Assembly (NCBI GenBank): GCA_018058135.1
Contig: JAGPCK010000007.1
Coordinates: 1,815-65,814 of the forward strand
Length of the DNA: 64,000 nucleotides
Origin: Bacteroidia bacterium
GTDB taxonomy: Bacteria > Bacteroidota > Bacteroidia > UKL13-3
Direction: 5' to 3'
Shown: positions 1,681-55,787 of the stretch, piece by piece
How positions within the stretch are numbered: the stretch's first letter is position 1
How the letters are laid out: every line of letters starts with the position of its first letter
Made by a program: the position numbers and the translations under genes
The notes under the pieces: model-generated
Database searches by the model: none
What the model saw: the letters and a program-made list of their open reading frames with translations, nothing else
What the model was told of the DNA's origin: nothing

Positions 1681-1841
1681 TTCACGCTAGTAAGAAAAGT
1701 CCAACTAAGTTAATCTTTTTATTTGAATAGCAGAATATTTTCAGAATAAATTTCGTTTTGGTTACTGTTTACAGCAATAAGGGATTTTTATAACCCGATA
1801 CTCTGTTTATATTTGCCCGTTACTAATCACAATTATTACGC

Positions 1842-24084: not shown

Positions 24085-24160
<76 letters not shown>

Positions 24161-24209: not shown

Positions 24210-24230
24210 GGGTGCAACATAGGTGCAACA
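24210..24230. repeat. 21-bp element GGGTGCAACATAGGTGCAACA (two GGTGCAACA half-sites), left copy; candidate integrase arm-type site
   Basis: Identical to 55607-55627 in the same orientation and 50 bp from the attL core. The half-site resembles GGTGCAAGA inside the core. Confidence 0.55.
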
Positions 24231-24449: not shown

Positions 24450-24842
24450 ATGCAAGGAACCCAACTTAGAAAATTAGAAGCAGAAATGTGGAGAGCCGCT
24501 GACCAACTCAGGGCCAACAGTAAACTGACCGCTTCGGAATACTCCATGCCTGTATTGGGTCTGATATTTTTGCGACACGCCTACAACCGCTTTCAAAAAG
24601 TAAAAATTGAAGTAGAAAAAACCTTGCCTTCACATCCTCAAAGGAGAGCATTGACTAAAAAGGACTTTGAAGAACAAAATTCAATTTTCCTTCCCGAAAA
24701 ATCACAATTTGACTATTTAGTGGCATTGCCTGATTACCCGACTTATCAAACAGATGATATTGACTTAAAAACGAACCTTGTATTTGAACATTTTAAACAA
24801 CAATATTTTGGAGGAGGAATGAGTATTTACGGGCAGTATTAG
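24450..24842 (+). pseudogene. Truncated Type I R-M methylase (HsdM N-terminal ~95 aa) fused to unrelated repeat-derived sequence
   Basis: The N-terminus LEAEMWRAADQLRANSKLTASEYSMPVLGLIFLRHAYNRF is the HsdM_N signature. The reading frame then runs into the 109-bp repeat at 24737 and stops. No methylase catalytic motifs are present. Confidence 0.65.
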
Positions 24843-28744: not shown

Positions 28745-28759
28745 TGAGAATTATTGCCT

Positions 28760-32903: not shown

Positions 32904-35900
32904 AACCAACGAACAAGCTTTAGAGGCTGCTATAGAAAAATGCCTCACTGGTCTTTGTAAAGAGGAATTGGAATTACAAAACCAAGAATTTTCCATAGCC
33001 GCAGATAGAAAAGACCTATATCGTGCTGGCAATGGTTATTATATTGGAGTTCCCGGAGATTTTAATGCGAAGTATGCTATAGATGAACACCGTTTTTGGG
33101 ATTTTTTACAAACTACTCAAAAAGATGAACTAGCCAAATTGCAAAAACAAAGCGATTGGAAATTAAAGATTCTGGAACGATTGGATCGGATGATTAAAAA
33201 ATACGGCATTCTGCGTTCTTTTCGAAAAGGCTTAGATGTAGATGATGCTCATTTCACTTTGTTGTATCCGTTGCCATTAGCCAGCAGTAGCGAAACGGTG
33301 AAGGCAAATTTTGAAAGCAATCAATTTAGCTCTACCCGTCAGCTTCGCTATTCCCTAACCAATACAGGTGAAGAAATTGATATGGTGCTTTTTGTGAATG
33401 GTTTACCATTTGCCACTATGGAATTAAAAAATCATTGGACAGGACAGAACGCAAAAGTGCATGGTCAAAACCAATACAAATTCAAAAGAGATATTACACA
33501 GCCATTATTAAACTTTGGGCGATGCATTATACATTTTGCAGTTGATACGGATGAAGTGTATATGACAACTAAATTGAATGGGAAGGATACTTACTTTTTG
33601 CCATTTAACTTAGGTCAGCGTGAACCTTTGTTTGGCAAAGGCAATCCACCAAATCCGTTTGGTCATAAAACTGCTTATTTATGGGAAGAAATATTTTCCC
33701 GAAACAGTGTTGCCAATATCATTCAGCATTTTGTTCGCTTTGACGGTAAAGATACTGATCCACTTAGCAAAAAGACTTTGTATTTTCCACGTTACCATCA
33801 ATTAGATGTTGTGCGAAAACTCATAAACGATGCCAGTAAAAAAGGCGTTGGGCAAAAGTATTTAATTCAACATTCTGCTGGTTCAGGTAAATCTAATTCT
33901 ATTACTTGGGCGGCCTATCAACTAATAGAAACATATCCAGAAAGCGATTCAATACCCGGAAGCAAAGGCATTTCAAATCCTTTGTTTGATTCCGTGATTG
34001 TAGTAACAGATAGAAGATTGCTGGATAAGCAACTACGGGAAAACATTAAAGAATTTTCAGAAGTTAAAAATATTGTGGCGCCTGCATATACTTCTGATGA
34101 CTTAAAAAAGGCTCTGGAAACTGGTAAGAAAATAATTATTACCACTATTCAAAAATTTCCATTTATAGTAGATGGTATTGCCGATTTAAGCGATAAACGA
34201 TTTGCAGTAATTATTGACGAAGCCCACAGCAGTCAAAGCGGAACAGCCGCAGGAAAAATGAACCAAGCAATGGGCAATACTTCAGAAGAAAATGAAGAAG
34301 AAGATGAACAAGACCCACAAGATAAAATATTAGAAGCCATGCGTTCACGCAAAATGCGAGGTAATGCTTCATACCTTGCATTTACAGCTACGCCTAAGAA
34401 CAACACACTCGAACGTTTTGGCGTAAAACAAGCAGATGGAAAACACAAACCATTCCATTTATATTCTATGAAGCAAGCCATAGAAGAAGGATTTATTTTG
34501 GATGTATTGGCAAACTACACAACTTACAAAAGCTATTACGAAATTGAAAAATCGATACAAGAAAATCCTTTATTTGACACTGTAAAAGCACAAAAGAAAT
34601 TAAGAACCTATGTTGAGCAAAACAAGCAAACCATTGCTACTAAAGCTGACATAATGTTAGAGCACTTTGTAACTAAATTAGTTAACACCAAAAAGCTTAA
34701 AGGAAAGGCCAAAGCTATTGTTGCAACCCAAAGTATTGAATCCGCTATCAATTATTATTACTCCTTGAAAACATTACTTGAAGAAAGAGGCAAGCCATTT
34801 AGAATTGCTATTGCTTTTTCAGGCACAAAAAAAATAAAGGGTATCGAATACACAGAGGATAGCATCAATGATTTTCCTGCAAATTTAGATACAGCAAAAC
34901 CAACAGACCCTGGCTATATCAGCGATAAGATTGCACGTTATGTTGACATGGACGAATACCGAATTTTAGTAGTGGCAAATAAATATCTGACAGGTTATGA
35001 CCAACCAAAACTAACCGCCATGTATGTTGACAAAAAATTGCAAGGAGTAATTGCGGTTCAGGCTCTATCAAGATTAAATCGTTCATCGGACAAACTCGGA
35101 AAGAAAACAGAAGATTTATTCATACTTGATTTTTACAATACCACTGAAGACATTAAAAAATCTTTCGACCCATTTTATACAGCAACATCATTAAGCAAAG
35201 CAACTGACATCAACGTACTGCATGAATTAAAATCTAATTTGGATGATGCTGGTGTTTATGAATGGAGCGAAGTAGAAGATTTTGTGGTAAAATACTTTAG
35301 AGGTGTGAATGCTCAAGAATTAAGCCCGATAATAGACACAGCAGCCGAAAGATTCAATTTATCTTTAGCGTTAGAAGATAAAGCAAAAGCAGATTATAAA
35401 ATTAAAGCGAAACACTTCGTAAAAATATACGGACAGATGGCTTCGATTATGCCTTATGAAGTTGCAGCATGGGAAAAATTATTTTGGTTTTTGAAATTTT
35501 TAATACCCAAACTGATAATTGTCGACAATGACAAAGATGCTTTAGATGGTCTATTAAATTCAGTTGACCTTTCTACTTATGGGTTAGAACGTGTAAAATT
35601 GAATACCAGCATTGGCCTTGATGAATCAGAAACAGAAGTTGACCCACAAAATCAAAATCCAAGAGGTGCACACGGTGTTGACTCGGAAAAAGACGAACTT
35701 GATTTAATAATCAAAAGTTTCAACGAACGCTGGTTCCAAGGATGGGAAGCTACACCTGATGAACAAAGAGCCAAGTTTGTGAACCTCGCACAGAAAATGA
35801 AAGAGCATAGCGACTTCAAAGAAAAGTATGCTGACAATTCTGATTTGCAAAACAGGGAAATTGCTTTTAGTAAAATATTTGATGATGTAATGGGTAAGCA

Positions 35901-35997
35901 ACGCAAGAATGAACTTGATTTATATAGATTGGTTTCTCAAGACGAAGGATTCAAGATAGCTATGCAGGATACTATTAAAAGGTTATTGAAACATTAG
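32893..35997 (+). CDS. hsdR: Type I restriction endonuclease subunit R
   Basis: 1034 aa. N-terminal PD-(D/E)xK-like region IDMVLFVNGLPFATMELKN, Walker A HSAGSGKSNS, DEAH box VIIDEAHSSQSG, and helicase C motifs (LTGYDQPKL). Confidence 0.9.
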   Translation: MTSKTNEQALEAAIEKCLTGLCKEELELQNQEFSIAADRKDLYRAGNGYYIGVPGDFNAKYAIDEHRFWDFLQTTQKDELAKLQKQSDWKLKILERLDRMIKKYGILRSFRKGLDVDDAHFTLLYPLPLASSSETVKANFESNQFSSTRQLRYSLTNTGEEIDMVLFVNGLPFATMELKNHWTGQNAKVHGQNQYKFKRDITQPLLNFGRCIIHFAVDTDEVYMTTKLNGKDTYFLPFNLGQREPLFGKGNPPNPFGHKTAYLWEEIFSRNSVANIIQHFVRFDGKDTDPLSKKTLYFPRYHQLDVVRKLINDASKKGVGQKYLIQHSAGSGKSNSITWAAYQLIETYPESDSIPGSKGISNPLFDSVIVVTDRRLLDKQLRENIKEFSEVKNIVAPAYTSDDLKKALETGKKIIITTIQKFPFIVDGIADLSDKRFAVIIDEAHSSQSGTAAGKMNQAMGNTSEENEEEDEQDPQDKILEAMRSRKMRGNASYLAFTATPKNNTLERFGVKQADGKHKPFHLYSMKQAIEEGFILDVLANYTTYKSYYEIEKSIQENPLFDTVKAQKKLRTYVEQNKQTIATKADIMLEHFVTKLVNTKKLKGKAKAIVATQSIESAINYYYSLKTLLEERGKPFRIAIAFSGTKKIKGIEYTEDSINDFPANLDTAKPTDPGYISDKIARYVDMDEYRILVVANKYLTGYDQPKLTAMYVDKKLQGVIAVQALSRLNRSSDKLGKKTEDLFILDFYNTTEDIKKSFDPFYTATSLSKATDINVLHELKSNLDDAGVYEWSEVEDFVVKYFRGVNAQELSPIIDTAAERFNLSLALEDKAKADYKIKAKHFVKIYGQMASIMPYEVAAWEKLFWFLKFLIPKLIIVDNDKDALDGLLNSVDLSTYGLERVKLNTSIGLDESETEVDPQNQNPRGAHGVDSEKDELDLIIKSFNERWFQGWEATPDEQRAKFVNLAQKMKEHSDFKEKYADNSDLQNREIAFSKIFDDVMGKQRKNELDLYRLVSQDEGFKIAMQDTIKRLLKH

Positions 35998-36292: not shown

Positions 36293-37090
36293 TTATGAAA
36301 TCAATGAAACAGTATTAATTGGGTCGAATATAAAATGCCCTAAACCTAATTTCCTTAGCCTTGTGTTCCATTTCTTGTCATATGTCCAATATAAAAAGTT
36401 TTTATTTTTAATGTAAACAAGATTGAACATATCCATCCAATCATTTGTACGAAATATCTCAACATTTTTTAATTCCAACTGCTTAAAAAAATAAGTCATT
36501 ACCAATATGAAAGGTTCGTATCCTTTTATCTCCTTAAACTCTTTCTTTTTTTGATACGCATTTAGCAAATGATCGGATGCCATTCTTGCGACTAATTTTC
36601 TAACCCCGGGTGTAGTATCTAATGCGTCATGTGCTTTACTACCCTTACCTATTTTTGCTCTTATTTCAGGTAAAGTGCCTGAATTAATTTCTCCCATAAT
36701 TTTATCCATAGGTTCTTTCCGTTCATTTACAGCATTTGCCATTTGGGTGAATTTTTCTTCAGGGATTGTACTTAAATCCATGCGTGCAAATATTTGTAGT
36801 GATTGCCACATTTCTTGTGTAATCTTCTTATTCCTACAAAACCAGATAGAGTGTGTTTTAATTATTATTTCAATTGGGGGGCGCAAATCGACTTTACTTG
36901 CATGTGTTACCAGAGCTAATGCTGCTCTTTGTAAACGAGGCAGATTACTTCTGTCGGATAGATATGGGCTTCTGCCCAATTCTGCAATACTGTTGTAGGT
37001 TGCAACAAGGTATAGTCCCTTTATAGCTTCTTCAGAAATAATCCCATCTCCTATATTATACCAAATATTAGTGTCGCAAATAATTTTCAT
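36293..37090 (-). CDS. Orphan PIN-like domain protein (predicted nuclease), function unknown
   Basis: 265 aa. The N-terminus MKIICDTNIWYNIG has the first acidic residue of a PIN fold. The C-terminal RTNDWMDMFNLVY carries late acidic residues. No adjacent antitoxin-sized ORF is present. Confidence 0.4.
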   Translation of the reverse strand: MKIICDTNIWYNIGDGIISEEAIKGLYLVATYNSIAELGRSPYLSDRSNLPRLQRAALALVTHASKVDLRPPIEIIIKTHSIWFCRNKKITQEMWQSLQIFARMDLSTIPEEKFTQMANAVNERKEPMDKIMGEINSGTLPEIRAKIGKGSKAHDALDTTPGVRKLVARMASDHLLNAYQKKKEFKEIKGYEPFILVMTYFFKQLELKNVEIFRTNDWMDMFNLVYIKNKNFLYWTYDKKWNTRLRKLGLGHFIFDPINTVSLIS

Positions 37091-37178
37091 AGTCTTATTT
37101 TATGCATATTCCCAAATTTAGTTCTTTTTTTATCTGATTTTGTGGGGGAGAGAGGTCAATTAGTAGACAAATTTAATT

Positions 37179-44800: not shown

Positions 44801-47619
44801 TAAAAGCAAATGATTACAGAACCGGATGTCTTGATTCGGCAATTAAGAACGTAGTGGTATTGCCTGCCATTACCAACACCATAAGTTCACCTCAACAAAT
44901 TTGTATTGGCGGAACACCGTCACAAATTAACGGTTCTACACCTACTGGTGGGGTAGGAAGTCCATATACTTTCAGATGGTACTCAAGTACTGATACGTTA
45001 AATGACCTTGCGTGGACATTAATCAGTGGTGCTACCTCTCAGAACTACCAACCTGCATCCCCGAGCCAACCCACATTCTTTAAGCGTGTAGTAGTATCAG
45101 GTTCATGTGAAATAGAAAGTAATATTTCCAGTATCGTGTTCATATGGAATAACATCATTACGGCAGATACTTCAGATTGTGACGATATAATAGGCTCAAC
45201 ACCTAACTCCATAAACTCATTCACTTACACATGGCAACGAAGCATAGACAGCAGCAACTGGACAAATATTCCTTCACAAACAAGCAAAGACCTGACTGGC
45301 CCTGTTTATTTCAAAAAGACACACGTAAGAAGAGTAGTGCAAGATTCCCTATGTACCTCCTATAGTAACGTGCTAACAATACAGCCCTCGATTACTTCAC
45401 CCATCACAACCACTACTGACTCCTTTTGTTACGGAGAAGCACTTTTGGTAACAGGTTCAACTCCTTGCAGTGATAACTCATCCATTACCTACCAGTGGCA
45501 ATATAAAACAAGCCCGTCAGGTGGCTTTAGTAATATCCCCGTGTATTACGATTCCGATAATGCCAGTTTGGATGAAGACTGGCACTTTGAATGTGAGTTA
45601 AGGAGAGTGTCCGTATCAGCAGGAGATACAATGTTAAGCGATACGCTTGCTGTTTACTTTAAAAGATTGGACAACTATATTTTATCCTTTGAAGGATTTG
45701 AGCCATACAGGTATGCTATATGTTCAGGCTCTTCGGCTCCTGGGCTTGTAGGTTCAACTATCTGTGAATACGGAGCGTGGGGATTTGCATGGGAAAGCAC
45801 AACTGATACCACCGATGCAAACAGTTGGCAGTATGAAGCAGGTACTCCGAGTTTTGGACCTACGGTTAATACCATTACAAAATATTACAGAAGAAAAGCA
45901 AAACATATAGCGTTGTCAGATTCAACTTATACTCCCGCATTTCAGGTATATGTGCGGAACCCGCAGATTGTAACCCAACCGGGTAATGCCACACTGAACG
46001 AAGGAACAAATACCTCATTTCATACCGTATGTTTAGACTTAGAGCCTGTTAAATGGCAATACGGAAAAGTAGTAGGCGGAAGTATGGTATGGACAGACCT
46101 CACAGCAGGAGGTCTTACTATTCCTGACCCTTTTGTACCGTATCAATATACTTTTGATTTACTTATGCCAGCAGAACTCTGCTTAGACGGAGCATCATTC
46201 AGAGCCGTGTATCAGAATCCTTGTGAGTCTCCCGGAACATATACGTACAGTAATACGGTAACACTGACTGTAAATGCAGTTTCCTATGATGTTTGGGCAA
46301 AGGATTATTCTACTGATGTGGGAGGTGAACCTTCTACTGTATCGAATACCTTCATTTGGGATAGTCCTGACATTTGGAACAGCAGAAGCACTGGAATTAC
46401 CTACCACCAAAATCCTGAGTACAGGATAAGTGACCCCAACTATATTCATGCTATTGTCCGTAACAAAGGAGCAGCAACAAGTATTCCTGCAAAGCTGTAC
46501 CTGTACTGGACATTTGCCAGCACAGGCGAAAGATGGGACAGGCATTGGCTCAATGACACAACGCTTTCATCTACATACGGCAACTGGAGAACATACTACG
46601 GTGCTAAAAAGCCTTTGGGCGGGTTAATAGGAGTATATAACGTTCCTACTATAACTTCAGGCAATAGCTGGCAAATGGAAGCAGCTTGGTATGCTCCTGA
46701 CCCTGGAGTGCTTACAGGAGATTCCAATGCTACCTCGGCTGAATTATGTTTCCTTGCACGAATAGTTACCTGCTCAACGCCTGAATATGGATTAACATAC
46801 CCTGAAACGTTCTATATGCGAGACAACGTAGAGCGAAATAACAACCTTGTTACAAAAAACTTCATTGTGGTAGATTCTTTGGCAGGTAATGGTAAAACGC
46901 ATTGGAACGGTAACGGTAATCCAACGGATTTATCCGCCACAGGTAGACTTGTATTTACTGCCCGTGATTGTGACTACTTCGATTACGGAACTGTAACAGT
47001 TCATTTAGATAATGAGTTGCAAACCCTGTGGGTTGGCAATGGAGCCAATGGCTCAGGTTTTAGCCTAATCAACGATTCTACTCTACAGATGGATAGTTGT
47101 GTCATGACACTGGACGATATTGCATACGGTGCGGAAACACGCTCCCTGTATGGTATTCAGTTTAATGAACGGGACGACTTAGTTATACTTGAAAACGTAG
47201 AGGAGTATTATGAGTTTGATGTTCAACAATACCTTACTGAAGAAAGCGAAGAAAACTCTATAGGCGGTATTCTGTATGGAGTGCCTGTGGTATTGTACCC
47301 ACCTGAAATCAGTGGATCTCAACGAAGAAACACACCTGTTCAGGACACCAAAGCCAATCAGCTTGCTTTCTCAGCTTTCCCAAATCCGTTCAATGATGTA
47401 TTAAAGGTAGTATACAGCTTACCAAAAGACGAAAACGTGACTATCACATTGACGAATTTACTTGGTCAAACTATACAAACGGTTGAGCAGAATGAATTCA
47501 AAACAGCCGGATTACATCGTTTGGATATAAATACCGTCAATCTTACTGAAGGCATCTACTTTATCACCTTTAAAGCGGGTAATGAAATAAAACAGAAAAA
47601 GATTGTTTTAATCAGGTAA
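41833..47619 (+). CDS. Giant T9SS-secreted M43 (pappalysin/ulilysin-like) zinc metalloprotease with propeller-like, PKD and Ig-like repeat modules
   Basis: 1928 aa with a signal peptide. The zinc site HEVGHWLGLYHTF is present. A module related to paralogs 1 and 2 follows (WVFGDHAALRFTSQG...NENGSLLFYG). There is a PKD signature WDFGDTNTS...HTYSAKGTYTI. The Por tail is FPNPFNDVLKVVY...GIYFITFKAG. Confidence 0.75.
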   Translation: MKQKRLTLVVALLCLWLSKSTQAQTQFSCGFDEQRQQWLDADTANYFTMHNYWQRIDKFKNNNYLQAPLDAGPQNSGSSMGVGCARANFVIPIVFHVVYDPGVSASNVHDSLVQNQLDILNKAFSGYYGGINTGIQFCLALKKPDGSSFSGINHIADSNPDYRKYGLQRNHLASKAYYDHNRYLNVWIVADIREANNTASLTGGYANIGYTTSIDGVIMRYEAAGNYNYCNSCGFVPSARGFTLIHEVGHWLGLYHTFQGESCLGDDSLTCANGGDHCCDTRAHYNPVNYTTCPPDTQKVCTSANAFYGNTPDPVHNYMNYVPEMCYTNFTADQMAIMYAGLMLTRDRISTPENLLAANLSCCLTTAVFNTTTPFKCTSDTIFTARAYPYSSVRHLWRVYRNGSLVQSHSDTTAIFTYHAPDTGTYDVSHAIVYNSNTDTTSFMRVNGFWELAHCGTNLQSTQANWVFGDHAALRFTSQGVYRNSAVYNNWPNFTSEFDASNSLSNENGSLLFYGLQDYWNKNYVKMSNSGIAYSGTPYQGLISFPVPFKKHRYYVLTVSGIEDLRPASPQRGFFNYSTIDTTLNSNGDLVSSLKNKGIEAPATGSEKSGPDSSIVPLEAITAIPKCDGENYWVITVDASGLEQNFGQMPGCSPVFCNVASYPNQLKLLVYSADSVGLTHHATSDSAIAIEDAYAALLKTSHDGIRVAMGRRVFSFDRSSGTLSLSNLLNIPSSYSIKGGSFSPNGLIYYLIVQEPSNSYFLYQFDLQSQWIINPFKIPIYSGALTFMQLGPDGKIYLSNKYSIQLPVINYPDSLCNNALPNACGFTFAGPKLANDNGSGGSCMEALPNMVDAKKKEDIPLVIYHRDTACFTVHFSSSVCCASSFSWDFGDTNTSLERNPLHTYSAKGTYTIRLIADLDTIYIDVKIGLESFTINGADTICGTPNYASYAVSLFNPYREYEWTMYKGSGTANNNGNDIDISWDSTGWVKVKANDYRTGCLDSAIKNVVVLPAITNTISSPQQICIGGTPSQINGSTPTGGVGSPYTFRWYSSTDTLNDLAWTLISGATSQNYQPASPSQPTFFKRVVVSGSCEIESNISSIVFIWNNIITADTSDCDDIIGSTPNSINSFTYTWQRSIDSSNWTNIPSQTSKDLTGPVYFKKTHVRRVVQDSLCTSYSNVLTIQPSITSPITTTTDSFCYGEALLVTGSTPCSDNSSITYQWQYKTSPSGGFSNIPVYYDSDNASLDEDWHFECELRRVSVSAGDTMLSDTLAVYFKRLDNYILSFEGFEPYRYAICSGSSAPGLVGSTICEYGAWGFAWESTTDTTDANSWQYEAGTPSFGPTVNTITKYYRRKAKHIALSDSTYTPAFQVYVRNPQIVTQPGNATLNEGTNTSFHTVCLDLEPVKWQYGKVVGGSMVWTDLTAGGLTIPDPFVPYQYTFDLLMPAELCLDGASFRAVYQNPCESPGTYTYSNTVTLTVNAVSYDVWAKDYSTDVGGEPSTVSNTFIWDSPDIWNSRSTGITYHQNPEYRISDPNYIHAIVRNKGAATSIPAKLYLYWTFASTGERWDRHWLNDTTLSSTYGNWRTYYGAKKPLGGLIGVYNVPTITSGNSWQMEAAWYAPDPGVLTGDSNATSAELCFLARIVTCSTPEYGLTYPETFYMRDNVERNNNLVTKNFIVVDSLAGNGKTHWNGNGNPTDLSATGRLVFTARDCDYFDYGTVTVHLDNELQTLWVGNGANGSGFSLINDSTLQMDSCVMTLDDIAYGAETRSLYGIQFNERDDLVILENVEEYYEFDVQQYLTEESEENSIGGILYGVPVVLYPPEISGSQRRNTPVQDTKANQLAFSAFPNPFNDVLKVVYSLPKDENVTITLTNLLGQTIQTVEQNEFKTAGLHRLDINTVNLTEGIYFITFKAGNEIKQKKIVLIR

Positions 47620-47699: not shown

Positions 47700-48071
47700 A
47701 TAGGGGCAGGGTTTAACCTGTAAGCATCCCCGTTTTAGGATTAGCCATAAAATATAAACCCATTTGTTGTTTATAGCCTGATTTTTGGACTATTCACAGA
47801 ATCCAACAAAATCAAAGGTTGCAATGAAGTGCAAGTTGTGTTTTAATAGTTGCTTAATGGAATAAAGCAAACTATTTAATGCTTTTTGACTTTGTTTTAA
47901 TGGTTGCACAATGGTTTTCAGATGCAATTTTATTGATTTTTGCCGACTCTGCTAATGATTGTTGATAGGACAATAGTTAACCTAACACTCTGCAATGCAT
48001 TGTTGTTATGCTATACAGTAATGTCTTGTTCTTTCTTAAGATTGCATTTATTTTGTCAAAAAAGTAAAACT

Positions 48072-48791
48072 ATGACTACACAATTAAATGAGTTCTTTCC
48101 ACTATTAAGAGATAAAGAAACAGGACGCTTATCTATTAGGAAAATACTTGGTATACCTATACTTTCATACTTGACATGGCAAGCAACCAGCCAATTTATT
48201 AAAATTGATGCGGCAGTTTTCTTTGACAGTAAAACAACCCTTCAGTTTTTCTTAGATGGGCACTTTCTAGTTTTCATTGTAGTTTTTGGCTTAATTATTA
48301 AAGCAACATACCTTTTTTCTGTGGCTTTTCAGGTGATATTTATTCAAATGCTTTCAGCGAGGATTAAAAGAAAAATCAGGGAGTTTGGAATGACAGAAGA
48401 GCAATATTCAGAAAAATGTAAAACAATAGCAGAAAAAACCGTTTTAGGGGTTACCGAGGACGAGATTAGATTAGTGCCTGCAATATTGAGAGATGTTTTG
48501 AATAAGGAAGGATGGCGGAGTTTTTCTGATGCGGTAGAAAAGGCCAGATTAAAATTAATGGATACGACATTATTCTTTATTCGTTTGCTCATTGCTTTAT
48601 CAGTCTATGTTTGGGGTAATTCCTTGTTTTCTTGGAAGGGTATTTTGCCTCTTTTATTAGTTCCGGTTTTGGCTATCTGTGCGGAAGGGTTAACATATAT
48701 ATTCATGGATATACTTCCATTAATCATTAAAACATTTCTAAAAGCCATTTCAGGATTTAGAGATAAGTCGGAAAGAAATATATTGTCTTGA
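48072..48791 (+). CDS. Hypothetical membrane protein (about 4 TM segments with a central charged loop)
   Basis: 239 aa from the first ATG (MTTQLNEFFPLL...). The track start 47940 is a TTG extension. I recognised no motif. Confidence 0.5.
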   Translation: MTTQLNEFFPLLRDKETGRLSIRKILGIPILSYLTWQATSQFIKIDAAVFFDSKTTLQFFLDGHFLVFIVVFGLIIKATYLFSVAFQVIFIQMLSARIKRKIREFGMTEEQYSEKCKTIAEKTVLGVTEDEIRLVPAILRDVLNKEGWRSFSDAVEKARLKLMDTTLFFIRLLIALSVYVWGNSLFSWKGILPLLLVPVLAICAEGLTYIFMDILPLIIKTFLKAISGFRDKSERNILS

Positions 48792-48828
48792 TATGTATAT
48801 TTGTGTTTCACAATTAATATTAATTTAT

Positions 48829-48954
48829 ATGGCAACAAAAACACCTCCTCCAAATGGGCCAAGTAAAACCACAAACCCTTCAGGTCCTAACCGTGGTAAC
48901 AACCCTCCATCCAAGCCAACACCCCCACCAGCCCCTAAGCCTAAAAGCAAGTAA
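48829..48954 (+). CDS. 41-aa proline-rich, lysine-rich micro-ORF (not in the supplied track)
   Basis: ATG at 48829 and TAA at 48952-48954. The translation is MATKTPPPNGPSKTTNPSGPNRGNNPPSKPTPPPAPKPKSK (14 Pro of 41, no hydrophobic core). A terminator follows 16 nt downstream. Confidence 0.35.
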   Translation: MATKTPPPNGPSKTTNPSGPNRGNNPPSKPTPPPAPKPKSK

Positions 48955-48970
48955 ACCCATCATTAACGAA

Positions 48971-49001
48971 GAAGACCGGATTTTGTCCAGTCTTCTTTTT
49001 T
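48971..49001 (+). terminator. Rho-independent terminator after the micro-ORF
   Basis: Stem GAAGACCGGA / TCCAGTCTTC (one mismatch) with a 5-nt loop, followed by TTTTTT. Confidence 0.65.
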
Positions 49002-49020
49002 AAAATTTAAATAAACTCTA

Positions 49021-49242
49021 ATGACAAATTACGAACTTATATGGGAGTATCAACAAAGAATAACCGAAATATATAAGAATGAAGGCTTGACTTGTTTGAG
49101 TGGGTTGGATAATACATATCAACTAAACGGGAAAAATATGCTTGCCTGGCATAGTGATGTGACTCGTAAATGTACAGTCAAACACGATGGGCATTTTGAC
49201 TACTTTCAGAATTTTGATGATCTTATGTACATTGTAAAATAA
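49021..49242 (+). CDS. Hypothetical small soluble protein (73 aa)
   Basis: ORF with an ATG start. I recognised no motif. It is co-oriented with flanking unknown genes. Confidence 0.4.
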   Translation: MTNYELIWEYQQRITEIYKNEGLTCLSGLDNTYQLNGKNMLAWHSDVTRKCTVKHDGHFDYFQNFDDLMYIVK

Positions 49243-49295
49243 ACAAAAAGTAAATTATTTTTTTCTACCTTGCTTTTCTATACACTAAACCTATT

Positions 49296-50132
49296 ATGAA
49301 CACCAAACCAATCGGGCAAATAATATCCGAACACCCGTCTCTCGTAATAACCATAATTATTGTTTACTTTGGCATTTGTGGTGGGCTTTGGCATATAGGC
49401 TATTGGTCTACATTTGAAGTTAATTTCCTACAATATATTGACTTCGTAGATGTCATAAAAGACTTCATTTTCCCTTTTCTTATGTCGTGTGGTATGTTTA
49501 TGTATTTATTCATACCCATTTGCTGTATCTATTATAGCAATGAGTTAAAGTGGGGGTTAGATGGTAAAATAATAAAATACAATAAGCCATATTTATTTAT
49601 CAGCATAGTCGGTATTTGTTTTGCTTTGTCTGGTTTTCTATACTTTTCTGAACTTCAATTCAAATGGAGGGCAATACCTTTTATTATTTCTATACCATTA
49701 GGTTGGTCTGCCGTTCATTATTATGTTTTACTGCCATCCATAAAATCCAAAACACTAAGAATGATAATTTTTAGTTACATATTTTTTATGCCCGTTAGTA
49801 GCTTTTGTTTAGCAAAAGCTCAAAGCGAAAAAACAGAAATTAGTAACTCTATTAATATGGTCATTAAAATTGCATTTATAAATAGTGATAATGCAAGACT
49901 GTCTTCGAAGTTTTTAGGCCAAACCTTTTTGGGAAATACATCTAAGCACATATTCCTGTTGGAGCGTAAAACTGGTGATATTACTGTTATAAACCATGAT
50001 GAAGTTCTTTTCATACAATATTCAAAATTTGATTACGAAAAAGTTAAAGAGTTTATGCAGATAAATGAAGAGCACGATCGCCAAATGCTTAAGGACTCAA
50101 TCGAAAAGTCCGATTCACTTCACAAGAAGTGA
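49296..50132 (+). CDS. Hypothetical membrane protein (N-terminal ~5 TM segments, C-terminal soluble domain)
   Basis: 278-aa ORF. The N-terminal 170 aa are hydrophobic and the C-terminal ~100 aa are charged. I recognised no motif. Confidence 0.5.
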   Translation: MNTKPIGQIISEHPSLVITIIIVYFGICGGLWHIGYWSTFEVNFLQYIDFVDVIKDFIFPFLMSCGMFMYLFIPICCIYYSNELKWGLDGKIIKYNKPYLFISIVGICFALSGFLYFSELQFKWRAIPFIISIPLGWSAVHYYVLLPSIKSKTLRMIIFSYIFFMPVSSFCLAKAQSEKTEISNSINMVIKIAFINSDNARLSSKFLGQTFLGNTSKHIFLLERKTGDITVINHDEVLFIQYSKFDYEKVKEFMQINEEHDRQMLKDSIEKSDSLHKK

Positions 50133-50245
50133 AGTGTCGTGTTTAAATTATTTTCCTTGTCCCAGGTCGTATATAGTCTCCCAAATTATTGACAGCAGCA
50201 ACCAGTTTTATACGGTAAATATGACATTATTTGAAACTTTACCTC

Positions 50246-50354
50246 ACCCGACTTATAAAAGAGACGATATTGACTTAAAAACGAACCTAGTATTTGAACT
50301 TTTTAAACATCAATATTTTGGAGGGGCATGAGTATTTGCGGACGATATTAGTAT
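50246..50354. repeat. 109-bp direct repeat, copy B (matches 24737-24845)
   Basis: See copy A. It lies immediately upstream of the iteron array at the cargo/backbone junction. Confidence 0.8.
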
Positions 50355-50355
50355 T

Positions 50356-50600
50356 AGTGCGCACTACGTTTTTTACTGCGCAACTACGTTTTTACTGCGC
50401 ATCTACTTTTTTTGCAGTGCATCTACGTTTTTGCTACGCATCTATGTTTTTTTCTGCGCACTATGTTTTTTGATGCACATCTACTTTTTTGCTGCGCATC
50501 TATGTTTTTTACTGCGCAACTACGTTTTTACTGCGCAGTACGTTTTTTTCTGCGCACTATTTTTTTTACTGCGCATCTACGTTTTTTACTGCGCATCTAA
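50356..50600. repeat. Iteron-like tandem array: 12 full units plus 1 partial unit of ~19-20 bp (consensus ACTGCGCATCTACGTTTTTT)
   Basis: I parsed the units by hand from 50356 to 50604, with a mean period of about 19.3 bp. Each unit ends in a T5-T8 tract (phased A/T tracts). The last unit encodes the C-terminal residues (..DAQ*) of the primase-like gene. Confidence 0.85.
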
Positions 50601-51674
50601 ATAGTCCCTAAGATCAAAGTTTCCTTTATTCTTATGTGATTGAGGTGCTTTTTCCTCCAAAAGAGCTGATACAGATACGATTAAACCGTTTTTGCGCATT
50701 TCAACTGCTTTAGCGCTCCATTTATCAAATTGCCCTAAATCAGGGAATAGGATAACATTCCTGCTGCGCAGCACATGATTTACATCTTGCTTTTGCATAT
50801 TGCATCCATTTGAACCACCTGTGGCCAGCCAGATTATTTGAGGCATTCGACCTGCGCAATAAATGGCCGTTGCTTCGGATTCAACTATTGCTACCGTATT
50901 TTCTTTGTCACTGCGCACCCAAGTGCGCAACTCAGTGTGTGCAGTGCTGCGCTTTCCAGTGCATTCTTCAGTTTGTGTAACGCTGCGTTCCCAAGAGCGC
51001 ACCTCAGTTTGCGCTGCGCTGTGCTCCCAACTGCGCTCCTCACTGTGTGCTGTGCTCCTCACCCCAGTGCACTCCTCAGTTTGTGCTGCGCTGCACTCCC
51101 AAGTTCGCTCCTCACAGTGAGCTGTGCTGCGCAGTAAATGTTCACCGAAAAAACACTGTTTCAATACAAACTCTTTGGGTGCGTACCCCTTTTCGTTAAG
51201 CACGTGCGCCCAGTTAATATGGGAATAAGGTTCTTTAACTCGCCTACCTGTTTTTTGGTCGTACAGCATCACTTTTCCGGTACGCACTCTTCCGTTAATA
51301 TCCATTTGCCAAAAGACTGTTGCACCATTCCAATGTTTTGACGTACCTATATGATATTTTTCAATTAACCTATCAACGGTTTCTTTATTGAAATGTAGCA
51401 TGAGATAATCTATAAAAGCGTTTTTGTGATATGAACTCAGGCTTTTTTTAAATACATCACTTTCTATATAGCTCGGAGGTTTAGGCTTAAACTGTTTGAT
51501 CGGTATAGGGGTTTGCAAATCTGGGGCAGGTCGAAATATCTGACCACAACTATGACACATACCGTAATGGATAGCTCCAATGAAAGGGGAGAACTTGCCA
51601 TCCTTGTTTGATTTACCGCAGGGACAAAACTCAACCCGTTTCCTGTTTCTATCGAATTTGTATTTATTTCCCAT
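50586..51674 (-). CDS. Zinc-finger + TOPRIM primase-like replication protein with an internal 12-aa repeat insertion
   Basis: 362 aa. The N-terminus has CPCG...CHSCG (Cys4 zinc finger). The C-terminus has VAIVESEATAIYC...NVILFPDLG (TOPRIM-like E and DxD-like). A 72-aa repeat block lies between them. Confidence 0.6.
   Translation of the reverse strand: MGNKYKFDRNRKRVEFCPCGKSNKDGKFSPFIGAIHYGMCHSCGQIFRPAPDLQTPIPIKQFKPKPPSYIESDVFKKSLSSYHKNAFIDYLMLHFNKETVDRLIEKYHIGTSKHWNGATVFWQMDINGRVRTGKVMLYDQKTGRRVKEPYSHINWAHVLNEKGYAPKEFVLKQCFFGEHLLRSTAHCEERTWECSAAQTEECTGVRSTAHSEERSWEHSAAQTEVRSWERSVTQTEECTGKRSTAHTELRTWVRSDKENTVAIVESEATAIYCAGRMPQIIWLATGGSNGCNMQKQDVNHVLRSRNVILFPDLGQFDKWSAKAVEMRKNGLIVSVSALLEEKAPQSHKNKGNFDLRDYLDAQ
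50909..51124. repeat. Intragenic 6 x 36-bp imperfect tandem repeat (approximate consensus TGCTGCGCTCCCAAGTGCGCTCCTCAGTTTGTGCTG)
   Basis: I parsed six in-frame 36-bp units by hand. They encode TAHCEERTWECS / AAQTEECTGVRS / TAHSEERSWEHS / AAQTEVRSWERS / VTQTEECTGKRS / TAHTELRTWVRS on the minus strand. They share the CTGCGC(A) core with the downstream iterons. Confidence 0.8.
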
Positions 51675-51707
51675 TATTGCCTACTTTCCTTACTTACTTA
51701 CTTACTA

Positions 51708-52973
51708 TTAGTAACTAGAGTAAGTACTATTACTTAATTTTATAAAATAACCCCAACGCGCTGAATCATTATTTTCAGATTTATGACTGAGCCTCTCATA
51801 TCCCAGATATTTCAATGCTTTACCTATTGCTTGCACATTTAACCTGAACTTGCCGGGGTATATTTCCAATAATTTATTCATAATATCAGTTGATTGGTAA
51901 AATTCTCCATTGTTTTTATCTCTTGGTAGAAAATGTTTTTGGATTAGTTCCATCTCTATTGTTGGAACATGAAATCTTTTATTCTCTAATTCATTTTCTT
52001 CAATTTCTTCTTTGGTAAGTTCGTAAGGGAAACCGTTTTTGTATAAGTAAAATGCCTCGGCCCAAATTCTGTCAACGTCTAACTCTGTACTGTATTTAAA
52101 GTTAATATGGGTAACATTAAATACGATCCATCTAACAGTACCGGTTTCATCCGTTAGAAACTCAGAATTATTAGTTGTTGCCCAAAAAGTGGCGATTCTA
52201 TTTCTTTTAAAAGGTTTTTTATCAAAGGGCCTTCTACTCTTATCGAATTGGATGCTCAAAAGCGCCTTGAGTGCGTTTATTTCATATTTGTCAAGATGAC
52301 TTAACTCATCCATATTTACGATAAAATTCTCACAAAGAGCGATTCTACCATCTTTATCCACTCCAATATTCTCAACGAAATAGGATTTCAATAAATTTGG
52401 GCTTAGCCATCTTATAAACGAGGTTTTTCCTTGATGTTGTCCAATGGTTTCCTGACCTTCTTTTGATGACTTTGTGCCAACTAAAACAATGCAATGCTTA
52501 TTAAATACATCAGGATTCATTGCACAGGCTACGCTGCGCACCAGCGCCTTTTTGAAATGAGTAATGAACCTATCATGGTTTTCAGTTTTAATATAACTAG
52601 CTAACTTTGAAATATGGCTTTCATGTTTATACTCCGGTAAATTTTCAAAATACTCTGCAATAGGGTTGTATTCTTTTACAAAGTGACTCATTAAAATAGC
52701 CCTTAAGTCAGACTGAGAAATACGATAGTTGTTGTACCTTAAATGGCAATATACTTCATTCTCATTGGCGGTCTTAAATTCACTGTTAGTGTTCTTGAGG
52801 CAGTATTCCAGTTCATTACTTATTACATTATAACGGAATTTGTAATTTTCATCTAAGAACTCTGTAACAAGTTGAAAATTGTTTTTTGGGGTGTCCGAAG
52901 ATTTTTGGATTTCCCTTTCTACATCCTGAATGTTTATTGAGGATTGCGGGTTAGGTTTATGATACTTATTCAT
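51708..52973 (-). CDS. VirE-like (SF3/D5-type) P-loop NTPase, putative replicative helicase of the island
   Basis: 421 aa. Walker A-like GQHQGKTSF, Walker B FIVNMDELSHL, and then SRRPFDKKPFKRNRIATFWATTNN..FLTDETGTVRW, typical of the virulence-associated-E family. Confidence 0.6.
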   Translation of the reverse strand: MNKYHKPNPQSSINIQDVEREIQKSSDTPKNNFQLVTEFLDENYKFRYNVISNELEYCLKNTNSEFKTANENEVYCHLRYNNYRISQSDLRAILMSHFVKEYNPIAEYFENLPEYKHESHISKLASYIKTENHDRFITHFKKALVRSVACAMNPDVFNKHCIVLVGTKSSKEGQETIGQHQGKTSFIRWLSPNLLKSYFVENIGVDKDGRIALCENFIVNMDELSHLDKYEINALKALLSIQFDKSRRPFDKKPFKRNRIATFWATTNNSEFLTDETGTVRWIVFNVTHINFKYSTELDVDRIWAEAFYLYKNGFPYELTKEEIEENELENKRFHVPTIEMELIQKHFLPRDKNNGEFYQSTDIMNKLLEIYPGKFRLNVQAIGKALKYLGYERLSHKSENNDSARWGYFIKLSNSTYSSY

Positions 52974-52984
52974 AATAATACTGT

Positions 52985-53293
52985 TTATTTAATTTTCTTA
53001 AGGAATTCACTTTTTGTCTCTTTTTTATTCTCAGTTACCCATTCGAGAAGTACTTTTTCGGAAAACACTAGCATTTTACCGCGTTTTGAATGCGGTATAT
53101 TTTTGGCAGATACAAGAGAATAGATGGTTTGCTTACTATAGATGCCTTTTAAGACTTCGCATGCCAAGTCTATTCCCCCAATTCGGTCTTTTGCAGGGGA
53201 AGCCTCCAGTTTACTTGATACAGCGATCAAACGCTCATCAATTTCATCAAGACGTCTAAGAATTGTGTCAAAAGGATTGTTAATATTGCTCAT
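52985..53293 (-). CDS. Excisionase-like helix-turn-helix DNA-binding protein
   Basis: 102 aa. The C-terminal half KQTIYSLVSAKNIPHSKRGKMLVFSEKVLLEWV resembles the MerR/excisionase-type HTH of Bacteroidota mobile elements. It lies between the int and replication genes. Confidence 0.55.
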   Translation of the reverse strand: MSNINNPFDTILRRLDEIDERLIAVSSKLEASPAKDRIGGIDLACEVLKGIYSKQTIYSLVSAKNIPHSKRGKMLVFSEKVLLEWVTENKKETKSEFLKKIK

Positions 53294-53360: not shown

Positions 53361-54368
53361 TTAATTCCCTTTTCCCTTTAGCTTTCCGATATATTCATTT
53401 GTTTTGTCCATAGAAAACTTATCTAGTGGGTGGAATTTCATTAACAGCTGTTTGGTGTATTCAAGATTTTCAATCATTTTCTTGAAGCTTGTCAATCGCT
53501 TACCCTTAATAAATATATCACACATTTGGCCGTCAGTAATCCTATAGCTGCGTTGAAAACTATTAGGTTTAATTTTTAAACCATACAGATCAATGATTTT
53601 TGAACACTCTTCTGAATAACTTAGTTCAGGCTCTCGGATATCAAGATACTGTTTTGCCTCTTTTCTAATCCAGACCAACATGGAGTAGTGGTTAAGATTG
53701 TATTTAAAATGTATCTTCACTTCGTCTTTAGTCGATATAGAAAATGGCTCATTAACCTTATACTCTATCCATTCATTAATTGTGAGTGTTTTTGCCGTAT
53801 CAATTAGGCCGGAAAATTCCTGATCTCTAAGGACTAATCTTAATTCTTCTCGAAATTTTGGTTTAAGATTGGTAACAAATTTATTTTCGTGGTAATTAAG
53901 AATTTTATTCGTCTCGCGGTTGCTGTGAAGGCTAAGAAGACAGATAAGGAAGTAAAAATAGGAATCATAAATAGGCCATTCGGTCAAAGGCAATGGGATA
54001 CCTCCTTCATCTATTATAACTTGTTGTTCCTCTTTAGATACTTTTTTAAAATATCCAAATGGTTCAATTTTAAAGTCCTTGTGATCACTGAAGCAAACCA
54101 CCTGATCTAAAAAATTATAATAGCCAAAACGAATTAATTTCCGATTTATATCTTCAGGACTATAATCAGGATCAAATGAAAAATCATACTTCTTTTCAAA
54201 ATATTCCGGATTGAATACCTCAAACAGCCCTTTCCTATAAAGAATTTGAAAAAGAAGATATCGAGAATCCTGAAGGAAATTCTTGTCAGTTGATTTTGAG
54301 TTAAAGATTCTATCAACAATCCGTAGGCAATTACCTATTGATAGTTCATATGAGTTTATTTTTTCCAT
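53361..54368 (-). CDS. Hypothetical protein (335 aa) coupled to the integrase gene
   Basis: I recognised no motif. Its start overlaps the integrase stop by 13 nt on the same strand. Confidence 0.5.
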   Translation of the reverse strand: MEKINSYELSIGNCLRIVDRIFNSKSTDKNFLQDSRYLLFQILYRKGLFEVFNPEYFEKKYDFSFDPDYSPEDINRKLIRFGYYNFLDQVVCFSDHKDFKIEPFGYFKKVSKEEQQVIIDEGGIPLPLTEWPIYDSYFYFLICLLSLHSNRETNKILNYHENKFVTNLKPKFREELRLVLRDQEFSGLIDTAKTLTINEWIEYKVNEPFSISTKDEVKIHFKYNLNHYSMLVWIRKEAKQYLDIREPELSYSEECSKIIDLYGLKIKPNSFQRSYRITDGQMCDIFIKGKRLTSFKKMIENLEYTKQLLMKFHPLDKFSMDKTNEYIGKLKGKGN

Positions 54369-55594
54369 ATAGATGCCTTTGTTGCTTCATCCAAAATTTT
54401 ATTCCCAAAACTGTCCAGATATATTTGTGTTGTCCGTTCTGATTCATGCCCCAGCAATTCACTTATAACAGCAGTTCCTTGGCCTTCATTTTTTAAGATG
54501 GTGGCAAAACTGTGACGTGCCACATAAGTCGTTATTTTTTCGTCTATCCCAATTTCTTTGGCAATGCTTTTTAAATCTCGGTTTGTTTGCTTAAGCACCT
54601 TCTCTATCCTGTTATCAATCTGGGTGGGGGTTACATGGATTTCCCTGTTTAATATTGGGAAAATATAATCTTTGTCGTTCCCTGAGTAATAGATATCCTT
54701 ATAATACTGAATTATCTCGAATGCTTCATCAAGTAACCCCATATCGAAAGATTGCCCTGTTTTTTTTCTGGTGTATTTCATTCGATTGTCTTTTGAAATA
54801 CTTTTCCATGTAAGAAATGCAATATCTGTAAAGTTTGTCCCCCTAGTTAAATAAGAGAACATAAAGTAGTTTTTTGAATGGAAAAGTGAACTGTCTGGGG
54901 TTGGTTTATAGTCAAAAATTTGTTTTATTTCTTGTTTACTAATTGCACGTTTTTCAGTTTTATGTTTTCTGTATTTTTTAAAGCTAAAATCTTTGAATGG
55001 GTCAAAATCACTACGAGCTAACCCTTCTTTCTTTGCATTGTTGATAAGTGTTTTTAATGTTCGCATAAATACAAAAATGGAATTCAGACTATTGCCTTTA
55101 TTTAAATACCAAGTGTCAAATTTTACGATAAACTCATGAGTTATTTCGAAGATTGAAAGGTCTCTGCCTTGTCTGAAATTGAACAGTGCCCTTCTGGTTT
55201 CCTTAAAAACATTGCTATAGCCAATTCTTCCCGATTTGTTCAAAGATTCAATTGTTTGATCGAAGTACTGAAACAATGAAGTACTATTACGTTTTTTTTC
55301 TTTTAGCAGATGCGTTCTGATTACCCCGACACCGGCCTGAACCCCCTCTTGTTCTAGTGTCATTAAAAGTTTATTAACCTCCAATTTTTTCTGATCAATG
55401 ATCATTAACAGTTCTTTCTGTAAGGGATGGCTTTTCTTAGGTGCATTTCTTTGTTCATCCCAGTTCTTTACGGTCGAACGATATCCTGTTGAAATGATAG
55501 TTCTTTTACGATCTTTAATAAGAACCAGCGCAATGGGGTATTCATCATTGACTGATTTTTTCCATGTGAGTAATTGTACTTTTACTGATGCCAT
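54356..55594 (-). CDS. int: Tyrosine-type site-specific integrase (Bacteroidota type with an N-terminal arm-binding domain)
   Basis: 412 aa. The N-terminus VKVQLLTWKKSVNDEYPIALVLIKDRK is arm-binding-like. The catalytic region is ARHSFATILKNEGQGTAVISELLGHESERTTQIYL (R, HxxR, H, Y). It lies 146 bp from the attR core. Confidence 0.88.
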   Translation of the reverse strand: MASVKVQLLTWKKSVNDEYPIALVLIKDRKRTIISTGYRSTVKNWDEQRNAPKKSHPLQKELLMIIDQKKLEVNKLLMTLEQEGVQAGVGVIRTHLLKEKKRNSTSLFQYFDQTIESLNKSGRIGYSNVFKETRRALFNFRQGRDLSIFEITHEFIVKFDTWYLNKGNSLNSIFVFMRTLKTLINNAKKEGLARSDFDPFKDFSFKKYRKHKTEKRAISKQEIKQIFDYKPTPDSSLFHSKNYFMFSYLTRGTNFTDIAFLTWKSISKDNRMKYTRKKTGQSFDMGLLDEAFEIIQYYKDIYYSGNDKDYIFPILNREIHVTPTQIDNRIEKVLKQTNRDLKSIAKEIGIDEKITTYVARHSFATILKNEGQGTAVISELLGHESERTTQIYLDSFGNKILDEATKASIWKK

Positions 55595-55606
55595 AATTTA
55601 AACCTA

Positions 55607-55627
55607 GGGTGCAACATAGGTGCAACA
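55607..55627. repeat. 21-bp element GGGTGCAACATAGGTGCAACA, right copy; candidate integrase arm-type site
   Basis: Identical to 24210-24230. It lies 13 nt upstream of the int start codon and 113 bp from the attR core. Confidence 0.55.
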
Positions 55628-55739: not shown

Positions 55740-55787
55740 TTGCTTGGGGTGCAAGAGGTCGTGGGTTCAAATCCCGCCACTCCGACT
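55740..55787. repeat. attR core (48-bp copy of the tRNA-Pro 3' portion)
   Basis: Identical to 24113-24160. No tRNA 5' half lies upstream of it, so it is not a second tRNA gene. Confidence 0.85.

Follow-up and report, generated by a model that had tools for sequence, protein, structure and literature searches.

An iteron-like repeat array at the primase gene of an integrated Bacteroidia island and its possible role as a replication-associated binding site

In P1 and F, arrays of 19-bp control iterons (incA and incC, respectively) directly follow the rep gene; on the opposite side of this gene, a defined origin is made up of identical iterons, and RepA and RepE have been shown to bind them. The origin of phage lambda comprises four iterons with A-tracts that are located inside O, the initiator gene, beside an AT-rich unwinding region. 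Classical iterons have a period of 21–23 bp, and host DnaA boxes are found in many iteron origins, although not in all of them. Here we describe a tandem repeat array that overlaps the end of a primase gene carried by an integrated island, the host being an uncultured Bacteroidia bacterium (lineage UKL13-3), and compare the array with these systems. The DNA analysed, hereinafter the window, is a 64,000-nt stretch of contig JAGPCK010000007.1 (assembly GCA_018058135.1, positions 1,815–65,814 of the forward strand), numbered from its first letter.

Two further kinds of elements are relevant to this comparison. The Rep proteins of the Staphylococcus aureus pathogenicity islands (SaPIs) are initiator-helicases whose C-terminal winged helix binds 6–12 penta- or hexanucleotide iterons, and in the SaPI origin, immediately downstream of rep, an AT-rich centre is flanked by opposed sets of these iterons, the number of which varies from island to island (PMC9371898). 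The mobilizable transposons of Bacteroides have the same backbone order as the island studied here, the gene for a DUF6371 protein being followed by a mob gene (PMC13597742, PMC4755523).

The array spans positions 50356–50604 of the window, has no assigned strand, and was delineated by Tandem Repeats Finder (TRF), by parsing of the units and by a shuffle control. TRF reported one array (50354–50599) with a period of 19, 12.7 copies, 81% matches and a score of 289 (310 at a period of 58), compared with best scores of 37–62 in 30 dinucleotide-preserving shuffles of the window. Parsing at the T-runs gave a first unit, AGTGCGCACTACGTTTTTT, at 50356, a total of 12 full units of 18–21 bp and, after unit 12, a partial 13th unit, ACTGCGCATCTA, at 50588–50599; the array thus has the tandem direct repeats of ∼17–22 bp that are characteristic of iteron origins. 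There are 12 T-tracts, all of them T5–T8, with centre-to-centre distances of 17.5–21 bp (mean, 19.36 bp). Every unit has the same orientation and, read in the direction of the gene, the consensus is TAG-(A/T/-)-TGCGCA-G-(T/C/A)-A5–8-(C)(G/A). The open reading frame (ORF) of the primase, 50586–51674 on the minus strand, ends in D-Y-L-D-A-Q-stop, where L-D-A-Q is encoded by the partial unit and the stop codon (TTA on the plus strand, 50586–50588) straddles the junction between the T-tract of unit 12 and the partial unit. A preliminary description of this DNA, made from the sequence alone, had reported 12 full units and one partial unit of 18–21 bp at these positions, a T5–T8 tract at the end of every unit, and a final unit that supplies the last codons and the stop of a primase-like gene; all three statements were borne out by TRF, parsing and the ORF end.

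We tentatively interpret the array as an iteron-like set of accessory or control sites for a DNA-binding protein, part of a SaPI-like replication module in an integrated Bacteroidia island. We give this interpretation somewhat less than an even chance, only slightly ahead of that of a neutral variable repeat, and both the binding of a protein to the units and a role of the array in replication are what we infer. Three observations argue for a recognized sequence: conservation within the unit is uneven, the core recurs in an in-frame array that is independent of this one, and it is enriched in unique coding DNA. A binding array is also favoured by the retention of the repeats, their consensus unchanged, in a lineage with 83–96% identity in the backbone, and by the presence in related elements of element-specific repeat clusters beside the primase gene.

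The conserved core, TAG(N0–1)TGCGCAG, contains a 6-bp palindrome and is followed by the A5–8 spacer. Conservation, scored in 27 units that represent two lineages, was 81–100% at the core positions, compared with about 50% at three spacer positions. The hexamer TGCGCA occurs 24 times in the window and 16 of these sites fall within 50358–51128: 10 in the 3' array, three in a second array, internal to the primase gene, and three in isolation between the two. The second array (50911–51133, minus strand; recognized by TRF, linker comparison and model confidence) consists of ∼6 in-frame units of 36 nt, built of 12-nt sub-units with GYGCAG(T/C), and has the 7-mer GCGCAGT in common with the 3' array, in the same orientation. 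Its translation is a 72-aa insertion that separates the N-subdomain from the Toprim domain, and the inter-domain hinge is 81 aa long, compared with 8–11 aa in all ∼70 other loci scored. The insertion is predicted to be disordered, with a predicted local distance difference test score (pLDDT) of about 30 for residues 185–242 in the AlphaFold2 (AF2) model. In a 98%-identical copy of the locus (L001) the internal array is unchanged and in a more divergent copy (L163) it is two 36-nt units shorter. A search with the 77-aa insertion peptide found no homologues, and for that reason a mobile in-frame repeat was rejected as its source. The three isolated sites (starts at 50693, 50765 and 50853; span 50693–50859) are located in unique Toprim-coding DNA. 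Finding at least three of them has a probability of P=0.0009 under synonymous recoding, the 73 homologous Toprim segments contain a single TGCGCA site in total, and at two of the three sites the residues encoded in the window differ from the family consensus. Together, these sites form a CTGCGCA cloud of ∼790 bp (50358–51133) over the 3' half of the primase gene. The preliminary description had named a satellite found in unrelated genomic contexts as the finding that would speak against an origin. A scan of metagenome and viral contigs with the unit returned single chance matches alone (57 metagenome and five viral loci, one match each) and no array in any of the repeat-like contexts that were read, so a dispersed satellite was rejected.

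The gene that ends in the array (50586–51674, minus strand) encodes a 362-aa DUF6371 protein (Pfam, 1.3e-54 in two stretches) that models as a primase of the DnaG/T7 gp4 type, with a Zn-ribbon, an N-subdomain and a Toprim domain, an assignment supported at the level of the fold. In the alignment, it has all family-invariant residues and ends three residues past the last of them, truncated exactly at the start of the family's variable C-terminal tail. The AF2 model has a pLDDT of 76.5, and nearly all of its top ∼30 Foldseek matches in the PDB are DnaG RNA polymerase domains (RPD) or T7 gp4 primases, with probability 1.0 but template-modelling (TM) scores of only 0.33–0.37. A PDB sequence search with the DUF6371 profile returned nothing, so that the link to primases comes from fold comparison alone. 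We found >3,500 DUF6371 homologues, among them the primase of a Tn4555-like cfxA circle, and nothing useful in the literature on DUF6371 and PrmN1. The N-domain of DUF6371 is also matched by the primase/helicase of a crAss-like phage (OR575929.1), and several 6–13 kb contigs from human faeces that were deposited as 'Bacteriophage sp.' (MT837912.1, MT839118.1, MT836643.1 and others) encode DUF6371; judging by their sequence, they look like backbones of mobilizable transposons, not phages.

The preceding gene of the operon (51708–52973, minus strand) codes for a 421-aa VapE-like superfamily 3 (SF3) helicase (Pfam VapE-like, 1.9e-33; PHROG DNA helicase, 3.9e-52; AF2 pLDDT, 86.6). Its whole length was matched to SaPI1 Rep1 bound to DNA (7PDS; Foldseek E=5e-17, TM 0.65), and a helix/β-hairpin unit at residues ∼339–413, inside the Rep1 match, can be read as a winged helix; the protein thus models as a self-loading SF3 helicase of the SaPI Rep1 type. 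By these fold comparisons, the labels 'primase-like' and 'VirE-like' of the preliminary description were correct for the two proteins. Fusion to Toprim, DUF6371 or PriCT domains is frequent among homologues of the helicase, which identifies the gene pair as a primase-helicase module. Examples of such fusions are P0137, P0150, P0159, P0163 and P0193, single polypeptides of ∼690 aa that combine the VapE-like helicase with DUF6371 and PF21957; others have Toprim_2/4 or PriCT. With a self-loading SF3 helicase that has a C-terminal winged helix and a primase, the locus has the proteins of a SaPI replicon, as judged by the matches to 7PDS and to DnaG/T7, and the module could plausibly form the core of a replicon.

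To place the array in the context of its family, we examined 80 genome loci with DUF6371 homologues. Repeats that keep their position in related replicons and covary with the initiator, as expected of an iteron origin, were not found for the array; instead, the repeats of the relatives are located at the junction of the helicase and primase genes. The 150 bp ahead of the primase start, which overlap the helicase stop, often contain an element-specific short motif in direct and inverted copies, and at least three exact copies in each orientation were found at 14 of the 73 junctions but only in two of the 1374 control windows. Such motifs are GTCCCA / TGGGAC in the Tn4555-like cfxA circle (L082, 1007–1069), TTTCAGT / ACTGAAA in L083 (6899–6968), GTCGGTTTT / AAAACCGAC in L084 (3242–3306; this locus has no terminal overlap, hence nothing that points to circularity) and TGTAACAC / TGTTACA in the L069 group (5656–5711 in L069). 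In the closest sub-family, represented by L157 (6925–6975) and L161 (5205–5255), two copies of TTTGCAA are followed by CCTATATAGG and two copies of TTGCAAA, and L038 (5600–5705) also has direct and inverted short repeats between helicase stop and primase start. This layout matches that of a SaPI-type origin; we found no published description of junction repeats in DUF6371 elements. The corresponding junction in the window (51675–51745) is AT-rich (77% AT), ranks third from the bottom in duplex stability among the 100-bp windows of the 64 kb and contains AGTAA/TTACT pentamers in both orientations (five AGTAA and two TTACT) along with (GTAA)4. Its fit to the SaPI-type iteron layout is partial, with a pentamer motif that was chosen post hoc, and the (GTAA)n run is polymorphic. 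The TGCGCA core is absent from this junction, though present in the internal array and at the dispersed sites.

Some homologues have repeats of other kinds. The tandem repeats in Mucilaginibacter-type homologues (L005, L009 and L011) have other insertion points and a different palindromic sequence and were dismissed as not homologous to the array; in L009 (5890–6010 and 6280–6470) and L011 (5749–6034) they are in-frame GTCCATGGAC / TCGA-rich insertions with long imperfect inverted repeats, which correspond to two variable loops of the protein. The downstream repeats in L032 are 120-bp hairpin repeats of the repetitive extragenic palindrome (REP) or miniature inverted-repeat transposable element (MITE) type and were likewise set aside as unrelated to the array.

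If the array does bind a protein, the following scheme could apply. After excision, a DNA-binding protein of the island would oligomerize on the CTGCGCA cloud, the candidate binders being the C-terminal winged helix of the helicase and the zinc ribbon of the primase. The array would act as an accessory or control site like P1 incA, F incC or P4 crr, rather than as the origin proper. The latter role would fall to the AT-rich junction with inverted pentamers after the helicase gene (about 51675–51745), which the family comparison and the SaPI layout make the likelier candidate. The number of units would drift by gain and loss of whole units, its exact value not being critical. A far bolder version of this scheme, which we consider unlikely as a whole, would have NBU-like Bacteroidota islands (after the nonreplicating Bacteroides units, NBUs) be SaPI-like replicons; in the present lineage, the cis-acting sites would have invaded the primase gene and extended past it, and the resulting ∼800-bp CTGCGCA cloud, partly translated in frame as the 72-aa disordered hinge, would be an origin or copy-control platform that assembles the self-loading helicase and the primase.

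Copies of the element with identical flanks carry seven (L147, L148 and L152), 12 (the window) or 13 (L151) units, although the seven-unit form may be a collapse of short-read assembly; Logan contigs break within the array. Whole-unit polymorphism between near-identical genomes is what defines a variable number tandem repeat (VNTR). The units differ from each other by about 19%, yet are identical from sample to sample; therefore, the array is old and has not been rapidly homogenized. In a decayed copy of the island, L163 (JGI 3300056999, 1–4200), the integrase is intact but the helicase gene is deleted, as is the N-terminal half of the primase. The identity of L163 to the window is 96% in the integrase region and about 90% in the 3' half of the primase gene (83–96% over the backbone), and the catalytic ESE motif of its Toprim domain has changed to VSE. 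L163 keeps both arrays, with 4.2 internal units and a 3' array of 15.6 units that has the same consensus as the one in the window plus a 97-bp higher-order repeat; exact TGCGCA is found in 10 of its 16 units, compared with 10 of 13 in the window. The DNA past the array is unrelated to that in the window. Thus, the array travels with the 3' end of the primase gene and persists without the helicase.

The preliminary description had predicted strong intrinsic bending from A/T tracts that recur about every two helical turns. This did not hold: at 10.5 bp per turn, the 19.36-bp spacing turns successive T-tracts by -56 degrees, so that the phase vectors cancel (|sum|/n = 0.06) and the array lacks the helical-phase spacing (about 21–23 bp) of an iteron origin. 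The phase analysis ruled out a planar bend, and the phasing predicts a superhelical path instead. In a wedge model, of which the relative ranks alone were used, the whole 250-bp array is at the 25th percentile of curvature and its 120-bp sub-windows are at the 1st–4th percentile. The strongest curvature predicted by this model in the window is at 37000–37130, 47300–47400 and 52950–53150, far above that of the array. Duplex stability per 100 bp is -131 to -133 kcal in the array and -119 to -120 kcal in its left flank, against a window mean of -129 kcal (sd 7). A scan for promoters and terminators at 49–52 kb found no site within the array; the sole terminator-like site nearby, at 50116–50136, serves a plus-strand gene. 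As a single strand, the array folds better than its shuffles (z=-4.96), which is expected of a repeated palindrome and was not used as evidence, whereas the internal array (50911–51133) folds no better than its shuffles (z=-0.54).

Several of these results weigh against an accessory or control array. Copy numbers of 7, 12, 13 and about 16 indicate that the count is not tightly constrained; the comparison of unit numbers, which the preliminary description had proposed as a check, thus counts against its origin claim. L163 keeps both arrays with its helicase gone. No comparable array follows the primase gene in about 70 related loci, and in three relatives at about 50% identity, which share the int–X–HTH–helicase–primase backbone (HTH, helix-turn-helix), cargo genes come directly after the primase gene. 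The array period of 19.4 bp is short of the 21–23 bp of classical iterons, and its units share a single orientation. There is no unwinding element beside the array, no nearby window being within the 15 least stable of the 64 kb, and the DnaA box TTATCCACA is absent from 47–56.5 kb, where just two sites with one mismatch occur, far from the array. The array is located between converging genes, those of the minus-strand backbone operon and the plus-strand cargo. Finally, the closest named family, the NBUs, has been described as non-replicating (PMC13597742). The polymorphism, lineage restriction, persistence in a decayed copy and missing hallmarks argue against an essential origin and keep the neutral repeat close. 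The probable replication origin of the preliminary description is thus reduced to a real array beside a replication module, with no unwinding element or DnaA box, a variable count and survival without the helicase. Likewise, its argument that iterons next to a pri/rep gene have the layout of an origin stands insofar as the module is genuine and the analogy to SaPIs legitimate (PMC9371898), and fails insofar as the array, absent from ∼70 loci, is not a family feature.

A neutral VNTR is a real possibility, if in our estimate a lesser one than a binding array. Under this explanation, slippage or unequal crossing-over duplicated a stretch of ∼20 bp at the primase stop (GATGCGCAGTAAAAAACGTA), and the copies then went through expansion, contraction and partial homogenization, the result being functionless and its likeness to iterons coincidental. 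This accounts for the whole-unit polymorphism (7/12/13) with identical flanks, for the 15.6 units and the 97-bp higher-order repeat in the helicase-less L163, where 10 of 16 units have exact TGCGCA against 10 of 13 in the window, and for the lack of the array in all more distant relatives; the truncation of the primase exactly where the variable C-terminal tail of the family begins and the similarly polymorphic (GTAA)n microsatellite nearby also fit. It leaves unexplained why TGCGCA occurs three times in isolation in unique coding DNA (P=0.0009) and why the 7-mer GCGCAGT is found, with its orientation unchanged, in an in-frame array independent of this one. Nor does it sit well with a core that is kept while spacer positions are free, or with units that are ∼19% divergent yet identical between samples, as befits an old array. 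We consider it improbable that the array is the origin proper of the excised island, where the helicase would bind TGCGCA, melt the A/T spacers and load itself, with the primase providing primers. The SaPI origin does consist of 6–12 hexanucleotide iterons downstream of pri/rep with AT-rich DNA among them (PMC9371898), the hexamer is palindromic and thus readable both ways with A5–8 spacers between sites, the helicase models as Rep1-like, and the junction of this lineage shows just a weak, polymorphic pentamer cluster. However, the gene next to the array is that of the primase, and the stop of the Rep-like helicase gene is 1.1 kb away, whereas the relatives and SaPIs have their repeats directly after the helicase gene (PMC9371898); the duplex stability of the array is about average, its units are out of helical phase and variable in number, and it persists in L163 without a helicase.

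Two more explanations have even less in their favour. The position of the array between convergent transcription units, at the border of backbone and cargo, would suit a structural or transcriptional boundary, such as a curved terminator in the 3' untranslated region, an insulator or a nucleoid-protein site, as would the rank of the 120-bp sub-windows in curvature and the palindromic cores that can pair between units as single strands. Such a boundary is hardly probable given that the array as a whole is not unusually curved and contains no terminator-like site, that its tracts are A-runs on the sense strand of the operon, which do not terminate transcription, and that the relatives do without such an array. 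Least probable is a remnant or accessory part of an origin of transfer (oriT). A transfer origin is a nick site accompanied by inverted repeats, unlike the 13 direct repeats seen here, and neither the ORFs scanned across the island nor the closest relatives at ∼50% identity have a relaxase or mob gene. The argument for it is one of place: the array is where oriT and mob follow the primase gene in NBU/Tn4555-type elements, and in Bacteroides relatives a relaxase gene comes directly after the DUF6371 gene (PMC13597742, gene table).

The rest of the island is consistent with an NBU/Tn4555-like element. Upstream of the helicase gene, on the same strand, are genes for a 102-aa HTH_17 (excisionase-like) protein (52985–53293, minus strand; Pfam, 1.8e-07), a 335-aa backbone protein without a match in Pfam, PHROGs or PADLOC (53361–54368, minus strand), whose place is taken in relatives by a gene of variable size, and a tyrosine integrase (54356–55594, minus strand; Pfam Arm-DNA-bind_5, SAM_5 and Phage_integrase). 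The order of tyrosine integrase, HTH, P-loop NTPase and Toprim primase is that seen in CP103138.1 and NZ_CP045613.1. An intact tRNA-Pro(GGG) gene is located at 24085–24159, and the stretch 24113–24160 is repeated exactly at 55740–55787 (plus strand) as a 48-nt copy of the tRNA-Pro 3' end on the attR side; therefore, an integrated island of about 31.6 kb lies between the tRNA and this copy. The element thus shares with NBU/Tn4555 the tyrosine integrase, the integration at a tRNA 3' end with direct repeats and the HTH/NTPase/Toprim backbone; it differs in having no relaxase or Mob domain among the ORFs scanned across the island (Pfam) and no recognizable oriT. Pfam, PHROGs and PADLOC recognized no phage-responsive repressor, packaging or interference genes. 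Rfam at the gathering threshold found two tRNAs alone in the whole window and, in E-value mode, nothing credible in the att region.

Beyond the array, which marks the border between backbone and cargo, the island carries a type I restriction-modification system (25050–35997), two GmrSD-like genes and proteins with type IX secretion system (T9SS) tails. The plus-strand ORFs at 47940–50331 have no match in Pfam or PHROGs, and the translated ones look hydrophobic; in L163 they are swapped for unrelated DNA and are therefore apparently variable cargo. Just upstream of the full-length hsdM (25050–27416), a 130-aa ORF (24450–24842) that matches the HsdM N-terminal domain alone looks like a truncated duplicate. 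The 21-mer GGGTGCAACATAGGTGCAACA is found at 24210–24230, 50 nt inside the tRNA end, and again at 55607–55627, where it precedes the integrase start by 13 nt. The paired pattern TGCAA(N5–6)TGCAA occurs only three times in the 64 kb, always on the plus strand, the third time at 47819–47834. These pairs are possibly arm-type sites of the integrase, and the pair at 47819 may mark where a distinct element of ∼8 kb, arranged in tandem with an older island, has its left end.

Should a protein of the island bind to the array, this would offer a handle on what happens after excision in a large, uncharacterized class of Bacteroidota islands that combine an integrase, an HTH protein, a Rep-like helicase and a DUF6371 primase, many of them with defence cargo. 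It would also raise the question of replication or copy control in islands whose best-known relatives are called non-replicating. A more general lead, which may outweigh the array itself, is the combination of the primase and Rep1-like fold assignments with inverted repeats at the junction: for elements of the NBU/Tn4555 type, among them carriers of cfxA, it points to an origin like that of SaPIs. Should the array be only a variable repeat, it would be an ordinary one, of interest chiefly for telling strains apart and for explaining breaks in assemblies.

Compared with known systems, the locus is like a SaPI in being an integrase-bearing island with a primase, a self-loading SF3 helicase and repeated sites downstream of the replication genes. 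It differs in gene order, helicase then primase, with the array after the latter and not after the helicase gene. In place of 6–12 iterons of 5–6 nt straight after rep, in opposed sets around an AT-rich block, it has one-way units of 19 bp with no central AT block. Packaging and phage-interference genes are unrecognized here, and the host belongs to Bacteroidia, not to S. aureus. With P1 incA and F incC the array shares its form, a long series of ∼19-bp direct repeats immediately 3' of a replication gene with copies of the core nearby, and an exact repeat number that is not essential; unlike these, the candidate origin junction has a different motif (AGTAA) and binding is putative. As in lambda ori, there are dyad-symmetric cores with A/T tracts and repeats within a replication gene, translated as an inter-domain linker (50911–51133), but the latter comprise ∼18 sub-units of 12 nt in the most stable DNA of the neighbourhood, inside the gene for the primase. 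The NBU/Tn4555 elements have a relaxase and a recognizable oriT, which the island lacks, and its cargo consists of restriction-modification, GmrSD-like and T9SS genes; no tandem array has been reported for NBUs. The head-to-tail units, whole-unit polymorphism and assembly breaks are those of a VNTR or minisatellite, whereas the presence of the core in unique coding DNA beyond the array and a conservation that differs from position to position in the unit are not. Thus, SaPI ori, P1 incA / F incC and lambda ori each have something different in common with the array, which nevertheless lacks defining features of every one of them, and we place it among the known repeat arrays beside replication genes of mobile elements.

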